Assembly (NCBI GenBank): GCA_000092065.1
Contig: CP000596.1
Source of the DNA: Ostreococcus lucimarinus
Taxonomy: Eukaryota
Length of the DNA: 64,000 nucleotides
Reading direction: 5' to 3' (one strand)
The notes below the pieces were generated by a model, which saw only the letters and a program-made list of their open reading frames with translations, was not told the origin of the DNA and did no database searches. Shown piece by piece: positions 7,952 to 40,630 of the stretch. Within the stretch, counting starts at the first letter, position 1. Every line of letters begins with the position of its first letter. A program made the translations under genes and the position numbers.

Positions 7952-8037
7952 AAGCACATCCAGCGCGCATTTTTTAGGTTGCCAAAACAAAACAAGTTCC
8001 AACATCACTAAAACACTCCCGATCGATCAAATATTAT

Positions 8038-10896
8038 CTATCGTTTCCGTTCGAATACACCGTGAGAGGCGATGGTATCGTCATCGCGCTTCGCCTCGTC
8101 GAGCGAGCGCACGTATCCACCGGTAATACCTCTCGATATGCGATAGAGGAGCGAGTTCTCGGGCGCGCCGTCGTCGACGATGACGTCCCGACGCTTCTCC
8201 ATGGCTTCGACGTTTGGCGGGAAAAGCTTCGGTTGATCGAGGCTTTCTCGCGGAATGTGCCTCGCATAGGGCAATCCCGGACGACACCGATCATACGCGT
8301 GTAGAAGCGACTCAAATGTTCGCTTCCACGTCAACCCACTCGTGCTCGCCACCGCTGCGGCAGACATGCGTTTCGCGAGCTCTCTATCCTTCATCAATCG
8401 CCTGATTGCGTTGACGTAGTTGGTAACGTCGCCGGGCAATGGTGCCGTGTTCTTCACAATGATCCCGCTCACCTCATCTTGCACTATAGCTCGATTCACA
8501 CCAACGTCATCCGTGATCACGGGCAACCCTGAAGCCATGGCTTCGATGAGATTGTTTGGAATCACCTCTGTCTTCGACGGGAAGAAGAATATATCTCCCG
8601 CCGCGTACGTTTTCGCGAGATTTGTCCCACCTTTATGACCTAGAATCACCACGTTTTCAAACTGCTTCAAGCTTGATCGCACCCAAGCCAAATCCGGTCC
8701 ATCGCCGGCGACGACGACTCGAAACTTTGGTAAATCCGCCTCGCGCTGCGCGACCTTGTTCAACGACTGGATCGTTTTCACAAAGCTCCCGAGACCTTTC
8801 TCGCGAACGATGCGAGCGACCCATAGAATGACAATATCGTCGCTCGATGCGCCGAAGACATCTCGTCTGTACTCGTCATCGCGCATCGATGGGTTGTACA
8901 ACGTTTGATTGACTCCTCGCGGAAAGAATCCCATCTTTTCTCCGGGAATCCCGATCGAACGGAGATGGTTCGCCGCGGCGTACGTCGGTACGGCGACGAC
9001 ATCGCACATGGAATAAAAATCTTTGAGCAAGTGTTGGATCGGATGGGTCAACAATCTGACGCGATAGTACTGCATGTAAGTGTCAAACGCAGTGTGATAT
9101 GAACACACCGAGCACGCGCCAACTTCTCTGGCCCAACGCACCGCGCTGTGACCGAGCATGTCAGGTGCGGCGACGTGCACGACGTGAGGATTGTACGCCT
9201 CGAGAACAGCGCGTTGCCTGGCTTGCAATGGGGCCGCCATCTTGTATTCTGGCCGTCCAGGAACTTCAACGGCGGGCACCGGCGCCACGAGTTGGTGAAC
9301 GCTGTGGTAATTGTTCGCCTCAACGTAATCTCGCTCGGCTAGATCCGGAGACATGACGAGCACACTCGCATCGTCCCGATCGCGTAAATAGCTGGCAAAG
9401 CGCTTCATCGTTCGACTTACGCCGTCAACGTGCTCCCAAACAGTAGTGACGATGGCGATTCGACGCACATCCAGCGCGACTACGTCGGACGACGCCTCGC
9501 TGCACGCCAACTCCGGACACGTCTTGTCGCTCACGACATTTTTTGCTTCCTTCAGCGTTGTCGCCAAGTCTGACGTCGCTTTACGCGCGTCTTCCAACCC
9601 GCACGCTTCGTACGCCGAAGCGACTTGGTACAACTGTTCCACCGCGCCCTCGTGCCACTGGTAGTGCTGCACGGAAATTGGCACTGGGAAAATGTTGTCC
9701 TGACGAATGTCCAACGCCGTCGCCGGAACAACGTCGTCGTGCGCGAAATCGTGCAGCGCACGCACATCGGCGACGTCAAATTTTAGCTTATGTGCGATCA
9801 CCATGCCTTCGCGCGGAAGTACTTGACCCGCTCCATTTGTATTCGGCGGCGACCTTCGCACGTCGCACGCCGGCCCCACGTGACACTTTCTCGGATAGCT
9901 CTTGTGCAACGACGTCTCCGCCTCGCGCTCGACAAGGGAACCATCGGAAGAGATTCGATCGAACCAAACACCGTTCACGAGCTCGAAACCGAGCGCGTCC
10001 GCGCGCGCCAGAAACGCAGGAATGCTATACTTTTCGCTCCCCAAATCCGCTTGCTCGGGGACGAATAAATGTTCATCAATGTCGGCTAAAATCACCCAAT
10101 CTTCCTCGCACGCCACGCCCGCGAGTTGCCGTTGCCAATATCTCGACAAATCGCTGTGTAAAAGCGTCTCGCCCCAGTATTTAGAGTACGTCACCCCGCG
10201 TTTCTTCATCACCGTTTCAAATTTCCCAAACCGCGATTTCGAAGCCTCTCCGACGTGCACCACCATAAACACATTCTCCGCCGGAATCTTCCCGTAGTCG
10301 ACGTAATGCGTCAAAAATTCCTCTAAAAGTCTCACCCCAAACGTCGCGTGCGCGTGCACGCCCGTCAACAGCACCGTCTTCGCCGCCTTTCCTCGTCCGA
10401 GCGCCTTGTCCAACGCGCTCCTCCGCCGTCCCGCCGAGCTCACTCGCCGCGGTCTGTACCTTCGATTCGGTCCCTCGAACCGTCCTCGATCGCCCGCGTC
10501 CAGGTCCCCACAGCTTAATTTCTTCGCCCGCCGTCCATCGCCTCCCTCGGCGCCGCTCCACGACTCGAGCGCTCTGTCCGCGCGTCTCGCGCTCAGCGCG
10601 TGTCGCCGTCTCGACACCGCCCGTCCGTCGCTCATCCATCGCACCGCCCACACCACCATCGCGCACGCGCACGCGCGCGCCACCATCACCCGCGCGCTCG
10701 CGCGTCGCTTTCGTCCGCTCCGCTGTCCTCGCTCCCGTCGCGCGCCGTCGTTTCGCCACGCCGCGCCGACTCTATCCATCATCTTAATCAACTTTTGTCG
10801 CCACCGCGCGCGGCTGCCGCACAGCGCGCGGTGCTGCGCCCGGTCCCAGGACGTGTGCGGGGAGCTGTCGCCGCTCGCGCTCAGCGCGAGCGGCAT
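8038..10896 (-). CDS. Two-domain glycosyltransferase. An N-terminal region with a DIDE/DxD-like motif precedes a C-terminal GT4-type catalytic domain (Glycos_transf_1).
   Basis: The C-terminal half reads ...ILWVARIVREKGLGSFVKT...FRVVVAGDGPDL...FFFPSKTEVIPNNLIEAMASGLPVITDDVGV, a typical GT4 EX7E region. ATG at 10896. The first ~230 aa are low-complexity, so the true start may be internal (for example MVARACACAMVVWAVRW, a possible signal anchor). Confidence 0.8.
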   Translation of the reverse strand: MPLALSASGDSSPHTSWDRAQHRALCGSRARWRQKLIKMMDRVGAAWRNDGARRERGQRSGRKRRASARVMVARACACAMVVWAVRWMSDGRAVSRRRHALSARRADRALESWSGAEGGDGRRAKKLSCGDLDAGDRGRFEGPNRRYRPRRVSSAGRRRSALDKALGRGKAAKTVLLTGVHAHATFGVRLLEEFLTHYVDYGKIPAENVFMVVHVGEASKSRFGKFETVMKKRGVTYSKYWGETLLHSDLSRYWQRQLAGVACEEDWVILADIDEHLFVPEQADLGSEKYSIPAFLARADALGFELVNGVWFDRISSDGSLVEREAETSLHKSYPRKCHVGPACDVRRSPPNTNGAGQVLPREGMVIAHKLKFDVADVRALHDFAHDDVVPATALDIRQDNIFPVPISVQHYQWHEGAVEQLYQVASAYEACGLEDARKATSDLATTLKEAKNVVSDKTCPELACSEASSDVVALDVRRIAIVTTVWEHVDGVSRTMKRFASYLRDRDDASVLVMSPDLAERDYVEANNYHSVHQLVAPVPAVEVPGRPEYKMAAPLQARQRAVLEAYNPHVVHVAAPDMLGHSAVRWAREVGACSVCSYHTAFDTYMQYYRVRLLTHPIQHLLKDFYSMCDVVAVPTYAAANHLRSIGIPGEKMGFFPRGVNQTLYNPSMRDDEYRRDVFGASSDDIVILWVARIVREKGLGSFVKTIQSLNKVAQREADLPKFRVVVAGDGPDLAWVRSSLKQFENVVILGHKGGTNLAKTYAAGDIFFFPSKTEVIPNNLIEAMASGLPVITDDVGVNRAIVQDEVSGIIVKNTAPLPGDVTNYVNAIRRLMKDRELAKRMSAAAVASTSGLTWKRTFESLLHAYDRCRPGLPYARHIPRESLDQPKLFPPNVEAMEKRRDVIVDDGAPENSLLYRISRGITGGYVRSLDEAKRDDDTIASHGVFERKR

Positions 10897-21507: not shown

Positions 21508-24236
21508 TCACGACTTCCAAACCTTTCTCCCGCGTTGTTGCTTCCCGCGTTGCACGGGTGCGTTTCGTCTGCGCGTGGCGGCGAACACGCGCGCCGCCAG
21601 CGGTAAGGCTTTCTTCTTGTCCTTCTCCTTGTTGCTCGAACCGCCAGTCTTCTTTTGTTTGCGCGCGCTCGACGCGCCGTACTCGTTGTCCTCGCGACCG
21701 GCGAGGACGGTGGCGAGACGCGACGCCTTGTCGTGCGCCTTCTTCAAGCCCGTCGCGGCGAGCGAATCAGGGTTCACCCGACGATCACTCGCGCGATCCG
21801 CCTTGCGAAGCATTAATCGAATGTGATCGGTCGCGACGTTCGAAGCCTTCATCGCGCCCGCCTTGGAGAGCGCGGCGTTGAGTTGCCGCTCCGTTTTGAG
21901 CGCCTTGATGCGCTTGAAATCCTCGTCGGTGAGAATGCGCTCTTGCTCCACCGGTCCACCCAGTTCGGCTTCCTCGGCCTCTTGCTCGGCGCGCACCTCG
22001 GCTTCTTCCTCTTCTTTACGCCTCTGCATCATTGCCTTGTGGCGACGCTTGAGTTCGGCGAGCGACAACTTGCCATTCTTACGAATCTTTGGCGGCGGCG
22101 CGTCGGGATCGATGGACGCTTCTTCGTCACTCTCGCGTCCGCGTTTGCCAATCGCTGGCGGCTCTACCTCGTCTTCTTCTTCTTCGTCCGCGTCTTCTTC
22201 TTCTTCTTCGTCCTCTTCCTCTTCTTCTTCGTTGTCTTCGTCTTCGTCTTCGTCTTCGTCGGAATACTCTTCCTCTGAAGACATTTCGACGGCTTCCTCT
22301 TCGCGTTTACGTTTCAAAATGTCGCGTTGAAGCAAGTCGACGCCGTCGATGCGACCCACCACTTCAGCTTCACCGAAACCCTTGAGCGTTCTTGACATAT
22401 CCGCCGCTTTCCCACGATCCTTCTTGTCGAGGAGGCCGGGCGCAATTTCTCGGAATAAAGCGATGAGTCCTCGCGCTGCGTTTGACACCGGCTTGTCGCG
22501 CGATTTTTTGTATTGCGTCAAATCTTGAAGTAAATCTTCATCCATCACCAAAGGACAGCGCGCACAAATTTCACGCACCGCGTTCAAACCAACCGCGGCA
22601 ATTTCAGGGCGCGCGCGATCGTGAATGAACTGGTTGACGAGCTGACGCAACATCGGCGCGAGCGCGTCCGGCGGCACGAGTTCGTGGCACGCCGTCGCGG
22701 CGGCGGCGAGAAGTCTCGTCACCTGCGTAAATGATGGAAATCAAACGTCAGTCGCGCATTCGATTATGCGTAAACGTAACCGCTCGATGCGTTCGCGTCA
22801 GGTACTAAGCGGAGGCGTTGGTATGGGTCATATTTGGAATGCCCTTGGCCTTGAGTTGTGTCGTCATTCGCGAGCGGGCGGCGCGTCGTCGAGCGCTCGA
22901 TGAATCAATGCGTACCTCCAGCTGACTCGGTTGAATATAGCGCTGCAAAAATGGATACACATTGAGCATGATGAGTTGATGCATGCCGATGATGCGACAC
23001 ATCATGAGGATGCACAGCATCTTCGTGTCGTACGACATGTGCCCGACTTGAAGCTTTCCGAACAGCAACTCAGCAAACGCTTGCGGATCGTTGATGAGCT
23101 GCATCGCGGCGAACCGAGAATCAATCGCTTTGTCCGCGTTGCGTTCTTTGCGCTGCATAGTCTTAATCGTCCGCTTTAGCTTCTTCTGCTTCTTCTTCTT
23201 AGACGAGGCGACGCCCTGCGCGATCGGAAGAAACGAGCGAGACAATTTTCGTCAGTATTTCGAACACTCGCTCGCGGCGCAAAGAAAAGAGCAAACGAAC
23301 GTCGCGAGAAAAGCCTCAGAGATCTTGGTGATTGATTGTCGTCACTGTCGAGCCTCGAGAGTAGCAAATATATTTGAACATCATCGGCTTGCACGTCGTC
23401 GTGTTTGAAAAAAAAGAGCGTTGAAAATGTGAGGCACCACGCACCGTCTTGTACGCCTTGAAAACGTCTTCCTTGGAAACCTGCGTGCGCGATTTAATCT
23501 CCGATTCGCGAGTCGACGGATCGTCGTCGGAATCGCTCCCATCCCCAGCTTCGGCTGCCGCCTCGGCGGCTTCGTCTTGACCTTCAAAAAACTTCAACGC
23601 GGCGATTAAGATCTTTTGCGATGGATGCTTGCACGCCTCCACCACCAAGTTGACCGTTTTCGCGTCGGTCCATATATTTCTCCGGTACATCTCCGTCAGC
23701 ACCGCGAGCGCCTTCTTCGCCGTGGCTTCGTTCTCATCCTTTATCGCCGTGTGCAAAAACGACTGCACCGTGCGATTATACTTGTCATCCGTCCTCTTCT
23801 TATTCGCCGCCTTCGCGTCGCTCACGATGTGTCTGAACATCAGCACCCGCAGATTTTTGTCCTTCACCCGGAACAGTTTAAAAAACAACGGCAGCGTCAC
23901 CTCCACACCGATCACGCCCTTGTTCCTCAATAAAATCAACGCGCTCGTCAAATTCTTCCTCAAGTGCGGGTCCAGTATCGCGTAATGTCGCTCCAGCACC
24001 TCCACCACCCCTTTCGAGAACCCTTTCGTCTGTTCCTTATACACCACGCTCACGTGCGCGATGAACGACACCAACTCACTGAATTCCTTATGATCCCGCG
24101 ACGGTTTCATCGCGAAGAGCGCGCGCAGCGCCTCGTAGTGTCGCAGCTGCAGCGCGAAATCCTCCTCGTATCCCTCCGGGTCGCGCTTACACGCGCTCTG
24201 CAGCGTCAGCAGGTCCATCGGTTTACGCGTCGACAT
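21508..24236 (-). CDS. SDA1: SDA1 (ribosome export/biogenesis protein), three exons: 23445-24236, 22916-23215 and 21508-22722.
   Basis: Exon 1 is the NUC130/3NT-like N-terminus (MSTRKPMDLLTLQSACKRDPEGYEEDF...). Exon 2 carries ...NDPQAFAELLF...YPFLQRYIQPSQLE. Exon 3 carries VTRLLAAAATACHELVPP...AAVGLNAVREICARCPL...LLQDLTQYKKSRDK plus an acidic E/D tract and a Lys-rich tail. The exon joins were chosen so that ...QPSQLE|VTRLL... matches human ...QPHQREVTKILL.... Confidence 0.85.
22723..22915 (-). other. SDA1 intron 2 (193 nt).
   Basis: Read on the - strand it begins GAG|GTACGC and ends ...catttaCGCAG|GTG. CTGAC lies about 30 nt before the acceptor. The read-through frame hits TAG, so splicing is required. 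Confidence 0.75.
23216..23444 (-). other. SDA1 intron 1 (229 nt).
   Basis: Read on the - strand it begins ACG|GTGCGT and ends ...tttcttccgatCGCAG|GGC. A CTGAC branch point sits about 38 nt before the acceptor. Both flanking exons are in phase 0. Confidence 0.7.
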
Positions 24237-32755: not shown

Positions 32756-33802
32756 TCACAACCCGAGCGATGAATAGTATTTCGCCACTAGTTGGCTCAA
32801 ACGATTGCCATCGGCGCCGCTAAATGTTTCCGCCTTGCGCCCTTCGCAATACACCGCGAACGTGGGCATGGACGAAACGCGCTCGTAACCCGCTATGTCT
32901 TGCGCCGCGTCGACGTCGACTTTGATGAAGTGCGCCGCCGGATACTTGGTCGCGAGCGACGTGAACACCGGCCCAATCATCTTGCAAGGCCCGCACCAGG
33001 TCGCAGTGAAATCCACAAAGACTAATTTCATCGTTTTCGTCAAACGTTGGTACTCCGCCATTTCGGTCACCTCTCGACATCCGGCTTGGACTTGCGGCTT
33101 CTTCAGCGCCGCTCGACATCCGTTCAAACTCGCGACTAAGCTCACATCTCCCGGCAAATCCTCCCACAGCCTCGTGAATACAACATCCGCTTCGGCGTAT
33201 TTCCCTAAAGCCGCCAATGCCGTCGCTTTGCGCAGCGAAGCCTTTTGATACGTTTCGCATCTCGCCAACGCTTCGTTCGCGTCGGCGAGCGCGTCCTCGT
33301 GTTTGCCCGACGCCGACTTACACGCCGCGCGATTACAAAACAACAGACTCGCCCCTGGAACATCGCTTCCACCGTTCGCTAATCCCTCGCTATACGCCTC
33401 GGCCGCGCTCTCGCGATCGCCCGCCTTGAATTTATCGTTGCCGAGCGCTCGCGCCGCCGCCAAGCGTTCCAACTTCCCCTTCGCGAGCGCCTCCGACGAA
33501 TCTCTCAATCCCTCGACCGCCCCGTCCAGCGTCCCCGCGCGCACGAACAACGACTCCAGGCGCGTCTTCGCGCGTTCGTACGACTCGCACGCCGCCCACG
33601 CGCGCGCACAGGCGACGACGGCGTCGTTCAGGTGTTGTCCCAGTCCCATGGCCATCAGCGCCGCCGCGGCGTTGGCGCGCGCTTTCGCGACGTCCAGGGG
33701 CGTCGAGGCGCATTCGGCGGCTTGTTCGTACAGGTCTAGAGCTGATTTAAAGTCGCTATTCTTCAGGGCGTCGTTGCCGCGCGCGCGAAGGTCGGTGGTC
33801 AT
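32756..33802 (-). CDS. TPR-repeat thioredoxin (TDX/TTL-like): N-terminal TPR repeats and a C-terminal thioredoxin domain.
   Basis: ...KLVFVDFTATWCGPCKMIGPVFTSLATKYPAAHFIKVDVD...MPTFAVY has the WCGPC active site. The N-terminal region is helical and repetitive with Ala/Leu-rich TPR-like motifs. My hand count puts the ATG at 33799-33801, one base off the track. Confidence 0.85.
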   Translation of the reverse strand: MTTDLRARGNDALKNSDFKSALDLYEQAAECASTPLDVAKARANAAAALMAMGLGQHLNDAVVACARAWAACESYERAKTRLESLFVRAGTLDGAVEGLRDSSEALAKGKLERLAAARALGNDKFKAGDRESAAEAYSEGLANGGSDVPGASLLFCNRAACKSASGKHEDALADANEALARCETYQKASLRKATALAALGKYAEADVVFTRLWEDLPGDVSLVASLNGCRAALKKPQVQAGCREVTEMAEYQRLTKTMKLVFVDFTATWCGPCKMIGPVFTSLATKYPAAHFIKVDVDAAQDIAGYERVSSMPTFAVYCEGRKAETFSGADGNRLSQLVAKYYSSLGL

Positions 33803-33850: not shown

Positions 33851-34798
33851 TCAGCCATACGGAGAACTTTCTCGCAAGATACGTGTCCACGCTTCTCGGT
33901 TCTTCTCTGCGCACTCGTGCAGGAATTCGTCTCGCTCTCGCGGCGTCATGGCGTCTAGGTACGCTTTGTGGCACTTCTTGCACATGCGCGTGTACGGATG
34001 GTGCCAATAGTACTTGCCGAGATTCGCACGGTACTTCCGCACGCTTCTGTCCGTCCCGCACGCTCGGCACGTCATGCCCTCCGGCGCCGGCGGCGTCGGC
34101 TCGCGACGCTCCATCCAAGCTTTCGATTTACGCCGTCCCGCTGCCTCGGCGCACTGTTTGTCGAACTCCTCTCGTGCCTCGGGCGTCATCGCGTCTAGGT
34201 GCACTTCGTGGCACTTGACGCACATGCGCGTATGCGGACGTTCCCAACAGTACTTGCCGAGATCCGCACGGTACTTCCGCACGTTTCTGTCCGTCCCGCA
34301 CGCTCGGCACGTCATGCCCTCCGGCGCCGGCGGTCTCGGCTCGCGACGCTCCAGCAGAGCTTTCGATTTACGCCGTCCTGTTTCCTCGGCGCACTGTTTG
34401 TCGAACTCCTCTCGTGCCTCGGGCGTCATCGCGCCGACGTGCGCTTCGTGGCACTTGACGCACATGTGCGTGTGCGCACGTCTCCAATAGTACTTGCCGA
34501 GATCCGCACGGTACTTCCGCACGCTTCTGTCCGTCCCGCACGCTCGGCAGGTCATGCCCTCCGGCGCCGGCGGCCTCGTCCCGCCGCCGCCCGACTCCGC
34601 CCTCAAAACGACCGCGCATCGCGCGTCGCTCAGGCACGCCTCCCCCAAACGTCTCGTTATCGTCTCCAGCGCCCCCCGCGCGCCGTCCCGTCCCACCGCG
34701 CGTCGCGCGTCGACGCGCGTTCGCCCGTCCCGACGCCCCCGAGCGCACAATCTCGCGTCGACCGACACCGACGCCGACGCCGCGCGCGCCGCGAGCAT
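33851..34798 (-). CDS. Protein built of three near-identical ~80-aa modules, each with a CxxC...CxxCH cysteine/histidine motif (a putative treble-clef zinc finger). An N-terminal presequence-like region precedes them.
   Basis: PPAPEGMTCRACGTDR(S/N)VRKYRA(D/N)LGKY(Y/C)W(R/E/H)...HT(H/R)MC(V/K)KCH(E/K)...AMTP(E/R)ARE(E/D)EF...QCAE occurs three times. The first ATG is at 34798 (MLAARAASASVSVD...); the track start at 34966 is a GTG. Confidence 0.6.
   Translation of the reverse strand: MLAARAASASVSVDARLCARGRRDGRTRVDARRAVGRDGARGALETITRRLGEACLSDARCAVVLRAESGGGGTRPPAPEGMTCRACGTDRSVRKYRADLGKYYWRRAHTHMCVKCHEAHVGAMTPEAREEFDKQCAEETGRRKSKALLERREPRPPAPEGMTCRACGTDRNVRKYRADLGKYCWERPHTRMCVKCHEVHLDAMTPEAREEFDKQCAEAAGRRKSKAWMERREPTPPAPEGMTCRACGTDRSVRKYRANLGKYYWHHPYTRMCKKCHKAYLDAMTPRERDEFLHECAEKNREAWTRILRESSPYG
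33890..34620. repeat. Tandem repeat of three units of ~240 bp, about 95% identical, inside the CDS above.
   Basis: The string tacttgccgagat(t/c)cgcacggtacttccgcacg(c/t)ttctgtccgtcccgcacgctcggca(c/g)gtcatgccctccggcgccggcgg recurs at about 34010, 34250 and 34490. Confidence 0.8.
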
Positions 34799-34956
34799 CG
34801 CTCCCGTCGCGCTCGACCGCGCGCGGCGTAATTTACCGAACCGCGCGGCGCGCGCGCGTCGCGCCGCGCGTCGCCCCGCGTCGCGCCGCGTCGCGATCTG
34901 CGTCCGTCGCCTTCGTGCGTTTTCGACGTTTTCACCGAAAACACCCGGTCGATGCG

Positions 34957-35574
34957 ATGTCCGCACAGATCGTCGCGTCGCCGCGCCGCGCGATGTCCGT
35001 CCTGCGCGCCCTCGCGCGGCGCGCGCGCGCGCGCGCGCCTTCGCCGCGCGCCGCCGCGCTCGCGACGCGCGCGCGGGCGCCGCCGCCGCCGATGACGTCC
35101 GTCGACGCGCTCTGGGAGGAGGTTCGCGACGCGCGCAGCGGACAGATTTACTACTGGCAGACGGAGACCGACGAGACGACGCCGCTCGGCGCGCCTCGGC
35201 CGACGACGTACAGCGCGCTCGACCCGACGATGCCGGCGCCGACGCGATCGGGGACGCGCGCGCCGCCGCCGTCGCGAGATCTCGGCGCGGCGGGAGGGTC
35301 GGCGGCGGGCGGATTCGGGTCGATGATCGCGCAGGGCGCGGCGTGGGGGATGGGGAGCTCGTTGGGACACCGCGCGATCGGAGGGATGTTCGGGTACGGC
35401 GGGTACGGCGGCGTCGGCGGGGTCGGCGGCGGCGAGGGCGCGATCGGGGAGGCGGGAGGGACGGAGGCGCCGGCGCCGCCGGATTTCGGCGCGAGCGAGT
35501 TCGACGACGACGACGGATTCGGCGACGGTGGATCCGACGGTGGATCGTTGTTTGATTTCTTTTCCGAAGACTGA
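34957..35574 (+). CDS. Small protein with a mitochondrial-presequence-like N-terminus, one WW-like motif and a Gly-rich C-terminal tail.
   Basis: [28 protein letters not shown]... followed by LWEEVRDARSGQIYYWQTETDETTPLGAPRP is WW-like (GxxYYxxxxTxxTxW/P). Then GGxGG repeats. The start is the ATG at 34957 or 34993; the track start at 34915 is a GTG. Confidence 0.5.
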   Translation: MSAQIVASPRRAMSVLRALARRARARAPSPRAAALATRARAPPPPMTSVDALWEEVRDARSGQIYYWQTETDETTPLGAPRPTTYSALDPTMPAPTRSGTRAPPPSRDLGAAGGSAAGGFGSMIAQGAAWGMGSSLGHRAIGGMFGYGGYGGVGGVGGGEGAIGEAGGTEAPAPPDFGASEFDDDDGFGDGGSDGGSLFDFFSED

Positions 35575-36328: not shown

Positions 36329-36593
36329 GGCGCGCGAGGCGAGGCGCGCGACGCGGAATGCGGAACGAGGAAAGTGCGAGGCTGGACGAGGACGGCGGCG
36401 TCGGGACGCGACGCGAGATCGACGACGACGACGACGACGACGCGCGTCGACGCGAAAAAGGTTCTTCGTGATGATGAGAGTACATGCGTTGACATCGGTT
36501 ACGCGAGGATTCGTCGGTGCGCCGAGGCGGCGGCGCGTCGTCGTTCTCTTCGTCGTCGTTCTAATAATCGTACGGTTGGCGCCGAGCCGTCGA

Positions 36594-37607
36594 TCACGTC
36601 GCCTTCTTCGAGCGCTTGGACGCGCCAGCCCCGGACGCGGGCGCGGCGGTCGACGCCTCTTGTTTTGCCGCGCTGCGTTCGGCGGCGGCGTCGCGTTTTT
36701 CGCGCTTCATGCCCTTCATCTTCGCCGCGCCGAGCGCCTCTAATCCGGTTTGCTTTTCCACGTACAGGCGACCCACCTTGCCCTCCAACATGTCGTGCGA
36801 CACGTTCTTTTGCTTTTTCGCCACGCGAGCTCGTTGGTAGGCCTCGCGTTTGACGTCCGGTGGCGCCTCGCGGTGACGTCCGCACGTGAAATCAAAACTA
36901 GGTCCCATCTCGGCGAGCTCGATCAAAGGCAACCGCGTGCCGGATTTCTTATACTTGATCGCGTACTGTCGAAACATCACGATCGGTGGTCCCCCGGGAT
37001 TAGCCAACGCCGTGCACACGATCGCCCGATCGATTCCTTTCAAATTTATCCTATCCACCACTCGTCCTCGAAATATATCGCTCATCACGTTTTTCACCAG
37101 TCGCAACCCGTCGTGCGTCTCGAAATCCTCCCCTTGAAAGCACAAGCACGGCTTACTTCCAGCCACCGCGTGCTTTCCCTCGCCCCCGAACGATTGCATC
37201 GACTTATAATTCCTCACCAACATCTCCACGCAATCGAACAGGTGATATTCAAAGAATCTGCCCGCCGTCAAGCAGTTCGGTCTCTTCTTTTGGTGCGTCC
37301 CGAGCAGAAACGCCCCCGCGTCCGCCTTCTTGGCGAAGAATTCCAGCGACGTCTCCCCCCCGCCCTCGAACGGACGTACCCCTGGGTTCTTTCGCGTCAT
37401 CTTGTGCGCCTCTTGGCCCTTGGTTCGCGCCAGGTCGGCGAGGAGACGCTTCAAAACTTCGGAACTGTTTTGCCCGTGCAGACACAGGGTGGTTTTGCCA
37501 GCCTTTTCGACCTTTTTCGGCGCGCGCGCGAGCAACGCGCGCTTGCCCGCGGTCGTGGACGCGCGTTTGATCTCCATTTTGCTCTCCATCGCGGCGCTGT
37601 CCGCCAT
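36594..37607 (-). CDS. RPF2: Ribosome production factor 2 (RPF2/Brix-domain protein).
   Basis: ...KTTLCLHGQNSSEVLKRLLADL...PFEGGGETSLEFFAKKADAGAFLLGTHQKKRPNCL...IELAEMGPSFDF... is the Brix/Rpf2 pattern. ATG at 37607. Confidence 0.85.
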   Translation of the reverse strand: MADSAAMESKMEIKRASTTAGKRALLARAPKKVEKAGKTTLCLHGQNSSEVLKRLLADLARTKGQEAHKMTRKNPGVRPFEGGGETSLEFFAKKADAGAFLLGTHQKKRPNCLTAGRFFEYHLFDCVEMLVRNYKSMQSFGGEGKHAVAGSKPCLCFQGEDFETHDGLRLVKNVMSDIFRGRVVDRINLKGIDRAIVCTALANPGGPPIVMFRQYAIKYKKSGTRLPLIELAEMGPSFDFTCGRHREAPPDVKREAYQRARVAKKQKNVSHDMLEGKVGRLYVEKQTGLEALGAAKMKGMKREKRDAAAERSAAKQEASTAAPASGAGASKRSKKAT

Positions 37608-37783: not shown

Positions 37784-40630
37784 TCACGCGAGCTCGCTCG
37801 CGACTTCGCTCGGGAGTAAATTGGCGGATTTCAGGGCGTCCGTGGCGTCGAGCTTGATGATGGCGGCGCCCAGAGCCAAGGGATCCGAGCGCTTGGGTAA
37901 ATCGTTGACGGCGATGCGGTTGGAGATTCCGCCCGTGGTGGAGAGCAATACTTCATCCGTGACGTCGTCGCCGATGCGGTCGACGAGAGTGATGGTGGCC
38001 AGGGCGTCGTCGTCACCCTTTTTGAATTTCATGCACATGACGCCCGAGCGACCGCGGCCGAGCAGGCGGTACGAGTTCGCGGCGACCACTTTGCCTTTAC
38101 CTTTCTTCGTCGTAAATAAGATAAACGGACCGAATTCTTCGCTCGCGGACACCATGCGTTCACCTGGGACGATAGCCATACCGACAGTTTTCGGCGGCAA
38201 AAGTTCGCCGTCGTCTTCGTCGTCGTCTTCGTCGTCGCCCGCGTCTTCGACGACGGCTTCTGCCACCTTCTTCTCGCCCATGGTTTTGATGCCCGAGATT
38301 GGCCTGCACGCCGACTTCACGACTCGGAAGTCTCCGACACGGCAGTGAAGGATGAGCCCTTTTCCAGCTTTCCCGGTGCCTGTGATGAAGAGATGGTCGG
38401 ACGTGCGCGCGAACATCACTTGCTGCAACCTATCGCCCTTGTCGAGCGTGATCACCTTCTTACCCTTGTGCCCGAGCATGGACGCCGCGGACGCCACGGA
38501 TACCTTACCTTGGCTTGTTAACATCACCACCACTTGGTCGTCCGCTACTTCACCCTGTTTCATGTTCGTCGACAACATGGCGGTGACGTTTTGGTTGCGC
38601 TTTGCGAACGTGTTCAACAGACTGGTCGCTGGAACTCCTATCGTGTTCAGTTCGGATTGCGGAATCGCCTTCGCACTGAGCTTTTGGACTCGCCCTCGAT
38701 CGGAGAAGAATAATATTTGATCGCTGTCTTTGCAGTGCATGGCTTTGGAAAGCTCATCGTTGGCGCGGAGCTTGCTCATGCGCTTCCCTCGAGTGCCTCG
38801 ATTCTGCGCGCCAAAGTTCTTCGGGCAGATGCGCTTGACGTATCCACGCTCAGAGAGGGTCAAAATATTATCCTTTGGTGGCGAATCGTCTTCGACGCCG
38901 CTTAAAGATTCGATTTGCTCGACGGACGTACGTCGAGGACGCGCGAATGCCTCTTTCGCCTCCATCGCCTCTTGCACGAGGACGTCGATGACCTTTGACT
39001 TGTTGCTCAACAAACCTTGGAAGTGTGCGATCTGCTCGTTCAACTCCTTGAGCTCGGCGTCTAACTTATCCGCCTCGAGTCCGGTTAATCGACGAAGCGG
39101 CATGGCGAGAATCGAGTCGGCTTGGATGTCGGACAAACCGTGCGATTCGCGCAACTTTTTCGACGCCGACGGGCCGTCTTTCGATTTTCGGATAATCTTC
39201 ACCACTCCATCCGCGTCGGCGAGCACGATCGAGAAGCCTTCAACGAGATGCTTGCGATCTTGCGCCTTTGAGAGCATAAATCTCGTCCGTCGCTCGATCG
39301 TATCGACGCGAAACTTGATGAACTCGTCGAGAATCTGGCGAAGAGGCATCACCGTCGGCTTGTTGTCTATGAGCGCGACGTTGTTCACAAAAAACTTCAC
39401 TTCGAGCTTCGTCTTGGCGTAAAGCTCCTCCAGCACGCTCGCTGCATCATATCCACGCTTAATCTCGATCACGACGCGCATGCCATCGCGATCGCTTTCG
39501 TCGCGAATATCACTGATGCCGTCGATGGTGCGCCCGTTGACGTGGTCGGCGATTTGTTCCACCAACCTCGCCTTGTTGGTTTGGTAAGGAATCTCGCTGA
39601 TCACCACCGCGTCCTTATCCAGCGAACCGCGCGCCGCCGACACGCGCTCGATCGTCGCCCGCCCGCGAAGCGTCACCCCGCCCTTGCCGGTTTCGTAAAT
39701 TTCCTTCATCCCGCTCTTATTCGTCACCACCCCGCCCGTGGGGAAATCCGGCGCCGGCAGCAACGCCATGAGTTCGTCCAACGAGCAATCCGGGTTTTTC
39801 GCCAGCGCGCACAGCGCATCGACAGACTCACCGAGATTATGCGGCGCCATGTTCGTCGCCACCGCCACCGCGATCCCACTCGAGCCGTTGATCAAAAGAT
39901 TCGGCACCCGCGCCGGCAGCACCTCCGGCTCCGTTTGACTCCCGTCAAACGTCTCCGTGAAATTCACGCACTCGTTCCCGATGTCCGCCAACAACCCCTT
40001 CTCCGCCAACTTATTCAATCGGCACTCCGTGTAACGCATCGCCGCCGGCGGATCGTCGTCCAACGACCCAAAGTTCCCGTGTCCGTCCACCAACGGCGCC
40101 GACATCGAAAAATCTTGCGCCAACCGCACCAGCGCCTCGTACACCGATCCGTCCCCGTGCGGGTGATACTTCCCCAGCACGTCTCCCACCACTCTCGCGC
40201 ACTTTCGGTGCGGTTTATCCGCCCGCAATCCCAGCTCGTGCATGCCGTACAGGATCCTTCGATGCACCGGCTTCAGCCCGTCGCGCGCGTCCGGCAGCGC
40301 TCGCCCCACGATCACGCTCATCGCGTACGACAGGTACGACGTCTTCGCCTCGCTCGCCAGTTCAACGTCGATGATCTTCTCCTCCGCGCTTCCCGTCGCC
40401 GTCGCGTACGTTCGCGTCGCGCGTCGCGCCGTCGCGCGCGTCGTTCGCGTCGTCGTCGGTTTGAAATTTGAACCCATCGCGCGTCTTCGCCAACTTCTCT
40501 CGCGCGCGTCGCGCGTCGTCGCGCCTCGCGCCCGCGCGACGTCGCGCGCGGTCGTCGCCATCGCTCGACACGCGCGCGCGACGACGGACGCGCTCGAAGC
40601 GCCGAACGACCGCGCGCTCCGCGTCAACAT
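37784..40630 (-). CDS. gyrA: DNA gyrase subunit A, organelle-targeted.
   Basis: [53 protein letters not shown]...[23 protein letters not shown] is the GyrA N-terminus with the active-site Tyr region. The C-terminal beta-pinwheel repeats are present. The first plausible ATG is at 40630, followed by an S/T/R-rich transit peptide; the track start at 40999 is a TTG. Confidence 0.9.

Follow-up and report, generated by a model that had tools for sequence, protein, structure and literature searches.

The closest described systems to the gene analysed here are the PRDM9- and KRAB-type C2H2 zinc-finger arrays of animals, whose zinc modules come from an in-frame, minisatellite-like tandem repeat in the coding sequence. 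Concerted evolution homogenises the module scaffold in these arrays, a few hypervariable, ligand-contacting positions per module have dN > dS, and module number and order differ between alleles, with very high allelic diversity within species (PRDM9 pattern as summarised in PMC8925151). TAL effectors and Rf-like PPR proteins are also repeat arrays in which a constant scaffold carries few variable specificity positions per repeat, and Rf-like PPRs are described as organelle-targeted and under diversifying selection (PMC1892557).

Here we analyse a gene of the green alga Ostreococcus lucimarinus, located in a window of 64 kb (the whole stretch of DNA analysed, 64,000 nucleotides). It has the same repeat origin, homogenised scaffold, few hypervariable positions with dN > dS, and allelic variability in module number and order as the PRDM9 and KRAB arrays, with ligand contact by the hypervariable positions putative in the alga. 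The two differ in that the animal module is a 28-aa C2H2 beta-beta-alpha finger, whereas the algal module is an 80-aa Cys4 knuckle-hairpin-helix; the algal protein is without SET, KRAB, or other effector domain; the algal and animal proteins have no sequence or family relationship; and DNA binding by the algal protein is putative. TAL effectors and PPR proteins, unlike the algal array, have helical, metal-free repeat folds, and the likeness may not extend to a one-module-one-base code or organelle import. Ostreococcus has among the smallest and most streamlined genomes of free-living eukaryotes, and in O. tauri an outlier chromosome is tied to viral immunity. To our knowledge, very few loci of the kind described here are known in marine phytoplankton beyond this "viral immunity" chromosome. 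The main point of the analysis is the extreme site-specific allelic hypervariability of the gene in wild populations, which is invisible from a single sequence.

The gene and its 240-bp units

An uninterrupted open reading frame runs on the minus strand from an ATG at 34798 to a stop codon at 33851-33853. The gene, its reference model, and its repeat units are placed as follows, with each unit starting at PPAP in the protein register:

33851..34798, minus strand: complete CDS, from ORF and translation, 315 aa plus stop, made up of an N-terminal region (75 aa) and then three units of 80 aa
33851..34555, minus strand: O. lucimarinus CCE9901 "predicted protein", 234 aa (XP_001422019.1 / ABP00313.1 / UniProt A4S987)
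34574..34798, minus strand: non-repeat N-terminal region, aa 1-75, Arg/Ala-rich, pI 11.5, conserved among alleles
34334..34573, minus strand: unit 1, aa 76-155
34094..34333, minus strand: unit 2, aa 156-235
33854..34093, minus strand: unit 3, aa 236-315, terminal
33937..34578, no strand assigned: DNA-level tandem array (Tandem Repeats Finder)

The reference model XP_001422019.1, an uncharacterised protein, corresponds to residues 82-315 of the reading frame (its translation is an exact string match to P0095); it begins at Met82, within unit 1, and is N-terminally truncated. All full-length wild alleles have the same start Met and the same C-terminus as the complete reading frame. The N-terminal region is rich in Arg, Ala, and Ser, particularly Ala, Ser, and Arg in its first 13 residues, and contains 16 K+R and 8 D+E. 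The organelle targeting read from it in the initial annotation is putative, and the region may be a presequence, an NLS, or something else. Compared with alleles L002, L007, and L008, pN is 0.006-0.013 in this region and 0.053-0.066 in the units. The whole protein has a pI of 9.6 and basic linkers of the GRRKSK type. The locus lies between the TPR-thioredoxin gene and a WW-domain gene, in a region of normal GC content and not on the outlier chromosome. A literature search for the array gene and its accessions turned up no paper, and the O. tauri population-genomics paper contained nothing of relevance.

Tandem Repeats Finder detected the array with a period of 240, 2.7 copies, 90% matches, no indels, and a score of 1058, and it is the sole long-period array in the window. 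An initial annotation of the sequence had proposed three tandem units of ~95% identity. The in-frame 240-bp repeat is real, but the units are less uniform than claimed: units 1 and 2 are 91.7% identical over 240 bp (93.5% over the 186-bp core), while unit 3 is only 70-71% identical to either over 240 bp (82-84% over the core). The unit starts given there, 33900, 34141, and 34381, are also out of register with the protein, such that the 5'-most unit takes in ~45 nt of non-repeat sequence. Its observation that the differences are mostly nonsynonymous holds, with 13 nonsynonymous and 2 synonymous codon differences between units 1 and 2, and 32 nonsynonymous and 5-7 synonymous between unit 3 and either other unit. 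The units share identical in-register runs of at most 50 bp. The C-terminal half of unit 3 (codons 44-80) is an old position-specific variant that has not been homogenised with the internal units.

Predicted structure of the module

Each unit contains the motif C9-x2-C12 ... C38-x2-C41-H42, in agreement with the CxxC...CxxCH pattern noted previously. The predicted zinc ligands and the segment between them, which we refer to as the hairpin (unit codons 17-33), are at the following positions:

34451..34549, minus strand: unit 1 Cys4 span (C9, C12 ... C38, C41), predicted zinc ligands
34211..34309, minus strand: unit 2 Cys4 span, predicted zinc ligands
33971..34069, minus strand: unit 3 Cys4 span, predicted zinc ligands
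34475..34525, minus strand: unit 1 hairpin segment, SVRKYRADLGKYYWRRA
34235..34285, minus strand: unit 2 hairpin segment, NVRKYRADLGKYCWERP
33995..34045, minus strand: unit 3 hairpin segment, SVRKYRANLGKYYWHHP

The four Cys are invariant across the whole family, paralogues included. AlphaFold2 models the 50-aa module with a pLDDT of 88, with strands at 19-22 and 27-30 and a helix from residue 39; C9 and C12 are in coil before the strands, and the helix bears C38 and C41. In the model of the 80-aa unit (pLDDT 78) there is an extra helix at 51-76. Each 80-aa unit is therefore predicted to fold around one Zn2+ held by the four invariant Cys, as a treble-clef-like Cys4 zinc module with a Cys knuckle, a beta-hairpin, a helix at the second CxxC, and a long helical linker. 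The CxxC knuckle, the beta-hairpin, and the placement of the second ligand pair at the helix N-terminus are those of a treble clef, and this modelled topology fits the treble-clef-like arrangement guessed in the initial annotation. Because the second Cys pair starts a helix in the model, the module would be a treble clef rather than an all-beta ribbon such as DZR. Its nearest structural neighbours are ribosomal uS14 and eS29, which are weak matches with scores that are not significant; compared with uS14 (type Z) and eS29, the algal module has 25 residues between its Cys pairs, a longer hairpin, hypervariable positions, and a tandem arrangement.

Within the hairpin, hypervariable positions alternate with the invariant residues V18, R19, Y21, G26, Y28, and W30. 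From this strand periodicity we infer that the variable side chains share one face of the hairpin and also occupy its turn and the first turns of the helix, and we take these residues as a putative recognition surface.

Family assignment

No match passes threshold in searches of Pfam, NCBIfam, and PDB sequences. Against Pfam, NCBIfam, and PHROGs, the protein, a single unit, and the paralogues had only sub-threshold matches to generic zinc-ribbon or CxxCH models. The top Pfam match is PF12773 (DZR), whose gathering score of 27.3 bits is reached neither by the window protein (21.2 bits) nor by the paralogues (15.8-18.9 bits), and membership of DZR was rejected. Pfam scans of the protein and paralogues gave no match to zf-C2H2, SET, or KRAB, and the C2H2 array signature (C-x2-4-C-x12-H-x3-5-H over ~28 aa, TGEKP-type linker, SET or KRAB) does not describe the 80-aa Cys4 unit. 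Profiles from 80-aa and 50-aa alignments matched CxxCH cytochromes, rubredoxin knuckles, and Kelch-type hairpins (SVEAYDPETDEW) among PDB sequences, all of them short-motif or repeat-summed matches that we discarded. The match of the profile to uS14/eS29 has an E-value of 0.82 and covers the knuckle only.

An exhaustive HMM search against 1.84 billion representatives gave 18 matches at E<=1e-3. True relatives in this set comprise copies of the gene (P0005, P0007, and the fragment P0055) and two Ostreococcus paralogue types (P0050; P0052, P0056). Most of the others are beta-propeller repeats, 'DFxVRAYxxxTGxLLWQD', that match the hairpin alone, and the remainder are short-motif or repeat-summed matches; all of these were discarded. 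A word-indexed profile search added only close fragments, while P0066 as the query led to one further paralogue, P0133, whose locus is not syntenic. A scan of viral contigs for relatives found none. The initial conclusion that the module could not be assigned to a family thus still stands with all Pfam, NCBIfam, and PDB matches sub-threshold. Judged by sequence comparison, the zinc module belongs to no described family, and the gene would define a previously undescribed one.

Allelic diversity in wild populations

Metagenome contigs syntenic with the locus are 99.7-100% identical to it in the flanks, over ~12 kb, but only 87-97% identical in the array. The 26 full-length alleles are all distinct and all have an open frame with no stop; two units are present in 11/26, three in 13/26, and four in 2/26. 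The three-unit layout is reproduced by independent contigs. Altogether these alleles contain 66 distinct unit cores and 54 distinct hairpins. Of the 62 core positions, 24 are the same in all 66 units and four more change in one unit only, and CxxCH is invariant (66/66), whereas other core positions accept 6-12 residues. About eleven positions of the unit are hypervariable (17, 20, 22, 24, 25, 29, 31, 32, 33, 39, and 43), and position 20 alone takes up to 12 different residues. W, F, L, I, M, and Y are among the residues seen at the variable positions. Within the array pN is 0.053-0.066 and pS 0.027-0.052, compared with pN of 0.001-0.0025 and pS of 0.008-0.012 in the neighbouring TPR-thioredoxin gene.

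Many of the alleles come from short-read metagenome assemblies and may be chimeric across the 240-bp repeat. Two look like chimeric assembly products from their sequences: L004, in which a lineage-A flank is joined to a lineage-B-like gene at a contig end, and L005, on a 428-kb contig, with five 1-bp indels that are all within the gene. We rejected the reading of P0007/L005 as a pseudogene; the indels fall exactly where two allelic states differ, so the sequence is most likely a mixed-population consensus. Assembly error as the source of the repeat number or of the allelic diversity as a whole, which these two sequences would favour, is very improbable. The window sequence equals the deposited CCE9901 protein model, exact in-register identity between units does not exceed 50 bp, and contigs of 42-85 kb with both flanks 99-100% identical carry different arrays. 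In addition, independent projects have alleles and units in common, with near-identical alleles in ENA and JGI data sets (e.g., L003/L009 and L007/L008). Collapse or expansion of the array during assembly, one outcome that the initial annotation named as a refutation, is unlikely on the basis of the 50-bp maximum run, the deposited model, and the independent contigs.

Concerted evolution and probable selection

In the zinc-half scaffold, the terminal units of lineage A have a nucleotide distance of 0.029 to lineage-A internal units and 0.144 to the terminal units of lineage B that are their orthologues. Within each lineage, concerted evolution has thus kept the zinc half alike from unit to unit. 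These distances, along with alleles of two, three, and four units, support concerted evolution with recent gain and loss of units, in line with the proposal made at the outset. A DGR-like or donor-cassette mechanism was considered and rejected; neither the window nor any other locus yielded a further copy or a cassette.

Inter-unit recombination invalidates simple tree-based tests. For hairpin codons 17-33, dN/dS is 1.8-2.2 (about 1.9) and exceeds 1 in 90-96% of codon bootstraps, with a region-level confidence interval of 0.8-7 that includes 1; outside the hairpin dN/dS is 0.6-1.0 (about 0.7), and for the whole core it is ~0.95. The eleven hypervariable codons were picked after the data had been seen, so their dN/dS of 4.5 is circular. 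Nucleotide diversity in the hairpin is 0.28, 0.25, and 0.12 at codon positions 1, 2, and 3, respectively, so that positions 1 and 2 are twice as diverse as position 3 and 4-8x as diverse as outside the hairpin. At codon positions 1 and 2 within the hairpin, pi is 0.02-0.04 in scaffold codons and 0.39-0.47 in hypervariable codons. Synonymous diversity in the array is raised 3-5 fold, and a local mutation or gene-conversion hotspot therefore contributes. Concerted evolution of the scaffold, an amino-acid excess at few positions, and array-length polymorphism, the hallmarks of a PRDM9-like regime, are all found here, in alleles that are mostly metagenome-derived and with a hairpin dN/dS interval that includes 1.

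Proposed function and alternative explanations

Our leading reading, which we hold tentatively at somewhat short of an even chance, is that the gene encodes a basic, lineage-restricted tandem array of zinc modules with a hypervariable recognition surface under diversifying selection and a nucleic acid as its likely, putative target. Unequal crossing-over and gene conversion between the 240-bp units would shuffle and homogenise the modules, while selection would favour new amino acids on the putative recognition surface. The array may read a rapidly changing or frequency-dependent target, with each module giving part of the specificity; this is the least certain step. The likely driver would be genetic conflict, such as a prasinovirus-host arms race or selfish DNA. 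A more specific proposal, possible but clearly less probable, is that the protein is an algal counterpart of PRDM9 or KRAB zinc-finger proteins that uses an undescribed Cys4 fold, with sequence-specific DNA or RNA binding through a code of roughly 11 residues per module, rewritten continually by unequal recombination and positive selection. The conflict behind such an array could involve prasinoviruses, selfish DNA, or organelle genomes.

The same architecture and regime could instead serve a hypervariable surface that binds proteins, such as a prasinovirus protein (the array then being a restriction factor or a host factor that evades capture by the virus), or a partner in mating or in self/non-self recognition. 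We consider this a real but doubtful possibility. It is suggested by the hydrophobic and aromatic residues (W, F, L, I, M, and Y) at variable positions, by the frequent binding of proteins by treble-clef modules, and by the Ostreococcus-prasinovirus arms races that are described as well documented (PMC5082852 and PMC5498103). However, a basic protein with basic linkers and tandem zinc modules is more typical of nucleic-acid readers, and the best structural neighbours, although weak, are the rRNA-binding uS14 and eS29. Moreover, no viral homologue or partner was identified, and the normal-GC locus is not on the chromosome linked to viral immunity. On balance we favour a nucleic acid (DNA or RNA) over a protein as the ligand. 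It is unlikely that the array is instead an unstable coding minisatellite under relaxed constraint, changing by slippage, gene conversion, and error-prone repair with no allele-specific function. Such an origin would account for the whole-core dN/dS near 1, the 3-5x higher synonymous diversity than in the flanks, and the unstable unit number, but not for the extreme heterogeneity between fixed core positions and those that accept 6-12 residues, the gap in pi between scaffold and hypervariable hairpin codons, or the greater change at codon positions 1 and 2 than at position 3. All 26 distinct full-length alleles also remain in frame without a stop, and the scaffold is kept in paralogues at 22-37% identity.

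The invariant CxxCH could also belong to a multi-haem c-type cytochrome, with a haem in each unit attached through C38-x-x-C41-H42, a distal ligand at M49, H34, or H45, and import into an organelle. Cytochrome c3, c7, c555, and doubled-CXXCH models give sub-threshold matches and the N-terminus is rich in Arg, Ala, and Ser, both of which point in this direction, but the matches fall below curated cut-offs and cover the CxxCH motif alone, and the protein shows no evident signal of the lumen or intermembrane-space type. A haem protein would leave the first CxxC without a function, the strongly charged unit has no obvious hydrophobic pocket for haem, and AlphaFold2 places the second CxxC at a helix N-terminus after a knuckle and hairpin, as zinc treble clefs do. 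The four Cys are kept in paralogues, where CxxCH is replaced by CxxCE, CxxCD, or CxxCN, so CxxCH is not a family-wide feature, and we regard a cytochrome as highly improbable. Least probable of all is that a nuclease domain of the HNH or His-Me finger kind, known from homing endonucleases, has degenerated and now serves to bind DNA. Zinc-stabilised HNH domains have a similar outline of CxxCG ... CxxCHxxH and a beta-beta-alpha core, a likeness that serves only as a lead, and the AlphaFold2 topology is beta-beta-alpha. Yet no HNH model matches in Pfam at E<=10 or in NCBIfam, and no HNH protein is among the structural neighbours of the module. The His or Asp-His expected where strand 1 ends is absent, as is a conserved Asn, these positions being occupied by R19/x20/Y21 and variable residues. 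The rejection of HNH in the initial annotation is upheld by the missing matches, catalytic residues, and structural neighbours.

Wild populations hardly differ over the ~12 kb of flanks compared, and in this setting a 0.7-kb array with 5-13% allelic divergence is a rare local hotspot. Differences in module number and site-specific amino-acid turnover would mark strong ongoing conflict or frequency-dependent selection. The gene is thus a candidate for strain-level specificity in virus susceptibility, recombination control, or genome defence, and the locus could provide a high-resolution strain marker. Natural variation already maps the putative binding surface of what would be a new zinc-module family. 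If the PRDM9/KRAB-like reading were true, no such system would have been known before from a picoeukaryote, and the module might offer a new scaffold for programmable binding.

Paralogues in Ostreococcus

The paralogues, found solely in Ostreococcus-like marine contigs, are of a P0133/P0066 type and a P0052/P0083 type, each with two modules per protein. They share the signature C-x2-C-x4-V-x2-aromatic-x6-W/Y-x-W/Y-x4-T-x-M-C-x2-C and, at 22-37% identity, keep the four Cys, T35, M37, V18, and aromatics at 21, 28, and 30, while H42 and C61 are not conserved. Their P-D-W-x-C-x-x-C-G motif resembles the second knuckle of rubredoxin. The N-termini are acidic, without the Arg/Ala/Ser-rich region of the array gene. 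The paralogue loci are elsewhere in the genome, one beside an SNF2/SHPRH gene and the other beside a 226-aa gene whose product contains an NPPY motif and which we read as a HemK-like methyltransferase. In contrast to the array gene, the two modules of a paralogue are mutually diverged rather than tandem-identical. In 11 members of the P0052 cluster, the modules are almost invariant, with three single-residue changes, and variation is mainly in low-complexity linkers.

A tandem Cys4-module gene in a lineage-restricted family

The zinc-module protein consists of a non-repeat N-terminus of 75 aa followed by three 80-aa units, and the start codon of the adjacent TPR-thioredoxin gene lies just 48 bp downstream of the zinc-module gene stop:

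33851-34798, minus strand, zinc-module gene CDS by ORF translation (ATG at 34798, stop at 33851-33853, 315 aa)
34334-34573, minus strand, unit 1 (protein register, starts PPAP)
34094-34333, minus strand, unit 2 (protein register, starts PPAP)
33854-34093, minus strand, unit 3 (protein register, starts PPAP)
32756-33802, minus strand, TPR and thioredoxin ORF (348 aa, called full length in all metagenome contigs)

Tandem Repeats Finder detects one array at 33937-34578 (period 240, 2.7 copies, 90% matches, 0 indels), the sole long-period array within the whole 64-kb window. The initial annotation described three ~95%-identical units, in a register offset from the PPAP-based protein register. That identity is too high: at the DNA level, units 1 and 2 match at 91.7% of positions (93.5% in the first 186 bp), and unit 3 shares 70-71% identity with each of them across the full 240 bp (82-84% over the 186-bp core). 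The unit alignment that it proposed does bear out its view that the differences are mostly nonsynonymous, with 13 nonsynonymous and 2 synonymous codon differences between units 1 and 2, and 32 and 5-7, respectively, between unit 3 and the other two. At 34841-35089, within the divergent intergenic region (~160 bp) and the 5′ part of the WW-domain gene, there are GC-rich simple repeats with periods of 10-42 bp (CGCGTCGCG-type), including a (GC)n-like run at 35004-35089. GC content dips to 0.53-0.57 at 8001-10000, 22001-24000, and 38001-40000, against a background of ~0.63-0.70.

From residue 82 to residue 315 the protein matches XP_001422019.1 (ABP00313.1, UniProt A4S987) exactly. The model of this 'predicted protein' of O. 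lucimarinus CCE9901, from a 428,333-bp record, begins at Met82, within unit 1. All wild alleles conserve the 81 codons upstream of Met82 (34556-34798, minus strand) in frame and share one start Met upstream of Met82, making it probable that the annotated model is N-terminally truncated. Two of the metagenome contigs, L003 and L009, carry an in-frame 9-bp insertion in this upstream region. The neighboring genes match XP_001422018 (thioredoxin) and XP_001422021 (Brix/RPF2). XP_001422018.1 (CCE9901) spans only the last 101 residues of the 348-aa TPR-thioredoxin ORF, from residue 248, and looks like another truncated reference model. The literature searched contained no mention of the gene or its accessions.

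The initial annotation could assign the module to no family, and the Pfam run that it proposed agrees: the protein has no match above threshold in Pfam, NCBIfam, or PHROGs. The best Pfam match is DZR (21.2 bits vs a cut-off of 27.3), and the other sub-threshold matches are generic zinc ribbons and CxxCH cytochrome motifs. Haem and HNH readings are both disfavored, as the protein did not pass the family membership tests applied for either group. Profile searches of PDB sequences returned short-motif matches only (cytochrome CxxCH, rubredoxin knuckles, Kelch-type hairpins). An HMM searched exhaustively against 1.84 billion protein representatives found true relatives solely in Ostreococcus-like marine contigs; by this search the tandem Cys4-module gene belongs to a lineage-restricted family. 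These relatives are copies of the zinc-module gene and two further types found at other loci. In P0133/P0066 a Lys/Glu-rich tail accompanies two diverged modules, and P0052/P0083 combines two modules with an acidic linker. The family shares four unchanging cysteines (C9, C12, C38, C41) and T35, near-invariant V18 and M37, and conserved aromatics at positions 21, 28, and 30; H42 and C61 are not conserved.

Most remaining HMM matches are propeller repeats in which only the hairpin is matched, and these were discounted with the other short-motif matches. The hairpin consensus VRxYdaxtGkyyW resembles blade hairpins of Kelch-type and PQQ-like β-propellers (SVEAYDPETDEW, DFTVRAYxxxTGxLLWQD), with matches of hairpin profiles A2/A4 to P0051, P0053, P0054, P0057, and the PDB Kelch designs 8pjr and 7ona. 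Summed repeat scores of the propeller matches reach E ~1e-6 to 1e-9. We take this resemblance as convergence of hairpin sequence rather than homology.

AlphaFold2 gave one topology whether run on the unit alignment (pLDDT 78) or on a 50-aa core alignment that also took in paralogues (pLDDT 88): a Cys knuckle, a β-hairpin (strands 19-22 and 27-30), a helix that begins at residue 39 and bears the second CxxC, and a long helix at 51-76. The module is therefore predicted to adopt a treble-clef-like zinc fold.

Unit number and diversity among wild alleles

Syntenic contigs in ENA and JGI marine metagenomes keep the neighbors gyrase A, Brix, a 210-aa ORF, the WW protein, the zinc-module gene, TPR-thioredoxin, and Trm11. 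Flanks of ~12 kb are 99.7-100% identical to the window, and 300-bp bins within the array drop to 87-97%. The only other bin below 97% in a ~13-kb comparison with contig L001 is 36401-36700 (93.7% identity, 81 gap positions), close to the 210-aa gene's 5′ end.

Divergence of wild alleles by region
TPR-thioredoxin gene: pS 0.008-0.012, pN 0.001-0.0025
Array: pS 0.027-0.052, pN 0.053-0.066
N-terminal 75 codons of the zinc-module gene: pN 0.006-0.013

Unit number is polymorphic and diversity peaks locally at the array: all 26 full-length alleles are distinct, with two (n=11), three (n=13), or four (n=2) units. Most alleles were assembled from short-read metagenomes, and the combination of units in any one of them may be a chimera. 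Over all collected proteins, the 62-aa unit cores comprise 66 distinct sequences and the hairpins 54. A given unit can occupy one array position in one allele and another in an allele of different length (the four units of P0045, for example, reappear in 2-unit and 3-unit alleles), a pattern that indicates unequal exchange.

Comparison of window-like alleles (lineage A) with a slightly diverged sister lineage (lineage B) bears on the concerted evolution raised in the initial annotation. Lineage B has an orthologous gene with 2-4 units, and its TPR-thioredoxin pS relative to the window is ~0.11. In the zinc-half scaffold, the distance of lineage-A terminal units (the last of each array) is 0.029 to lineage-A internal units and 0.144 to lineage-B terminal units, and internal units differ among themselves by 0.032. 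The units thus evolve in concert. The C-terminal half shows the reverse, with 0.024 between A and B terminal units and 0.33-0.40 between terminal and internal units. Homogenization therefore extends over the zinc half and does not reach the last unit's tail. The hairpin VRKYDADLGKYYWIHP occurs on both lineage-A (P0002, P0124) and lineage-B (P0131) scaffolds, and could be a trans-lineage polymorphism, introgression, or an assembly chimera.

Amino acid turnover on a fixed scaffold

Among the 66 units, positions 9, 12, 14, 15, 18, 19, 21, 26, 28, 30, 35, 38, and 40-42 are unchanging, and position 16 is altered in one. Interleaved with them, positions 17, 20, 22, 24, 25, 29, 31, 32, 33, 39, and 43 each accept 3-12 residues. 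Amino acids thus turn over at specific sites on a fixed scaffold. The i/i+2 periodicity of strands would place residues 20, 22, 29, and 31 on one face of the hairpin and Y21, Y28, and W30 on the other; residues 24 and 25 would fall in the turn, and a single helical turn would separate 39 from 43.

Nei-Gojobori estimates from 23 distinct unit DNAs give a dN/dS of 1.8-2.2 in hairpin codons 17-33 vs 0.6-1.0 elsewhere, and among 17-codon windows pN is highest in the hairpin. Hairpin dN/dS exceeds 1 in 90-96% of codon bootstraps (95% interval 0.8-7). These selection statistics are suggestive and not a formal test, since the units recombine and the same data served to identify the variable sites. 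In lineage-A internal units, diversity at codon positions 1, 2, and 3 is 0.28, 0.25, and 0.12 in the hairpin and 0.04, 0.06, and 0.06 outside it, and the hairpin excess therefore falls at amino-acid-changing positions. The hypervariable codons of all three units (e.g. within 34475-34525) are AT-rich at the third position (GC3 0.45 vs 0.86 for other unit codons). In several of them the third position stays T as the first two vary, as in codon 22 (CGT/AAT/ATT/GAT/TAT/CAT).

Possible function and alternative explanations

The variable residues may form a recognition surface, and the array could act as a modular reader whose diversity is kept by an arms race or frequency-dependent selection, an evolutionary regime that we liken to that of PRDM9 and KZFP arrays. 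A nucleic acid is the favored ligand on account of the protein's basic character (pI 9.6, with basic linkers), its tandem arrangement of zinc modules, and a weak resemblance to ribosomal uS14/eS29; a protein ligand for the variable surface is a serious rival. A purely neutral, unstable minisatellite is unlikely, as the scaffold is invariant and all 26 reading frames are intact.

Assembly artefacts explain a few contigs (L004 and L005) but not the overall pattern, and near-identical alleles were recovered from independent projects (e.g. L003/L009 and L007/L008). L004 (ENA ERZ27313099 k141_32424) matches the window at ~100% over its upstream 6 kb but has an array of lineage-B type, and the first 202 bp of TPR-thioredoxin, where the contig ends, has a pS of 0.079; L004 is an assembly chimera or else a genuinely introgressed allele. 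L005 (3001-3756; JGI 3300046167, 428-kb contig) has five 1-bp indels, all within the array and none elsewhere in the alignment shown. They fall where two allelic states differ (e.g. CACCTAGAC vs CACGTCGGC), and we rejected a pseudogene on this coincidence; the contig looks like a consensus of mixed alleles. IMG labels its frameshifted ORF 'general stress protein YciG'.
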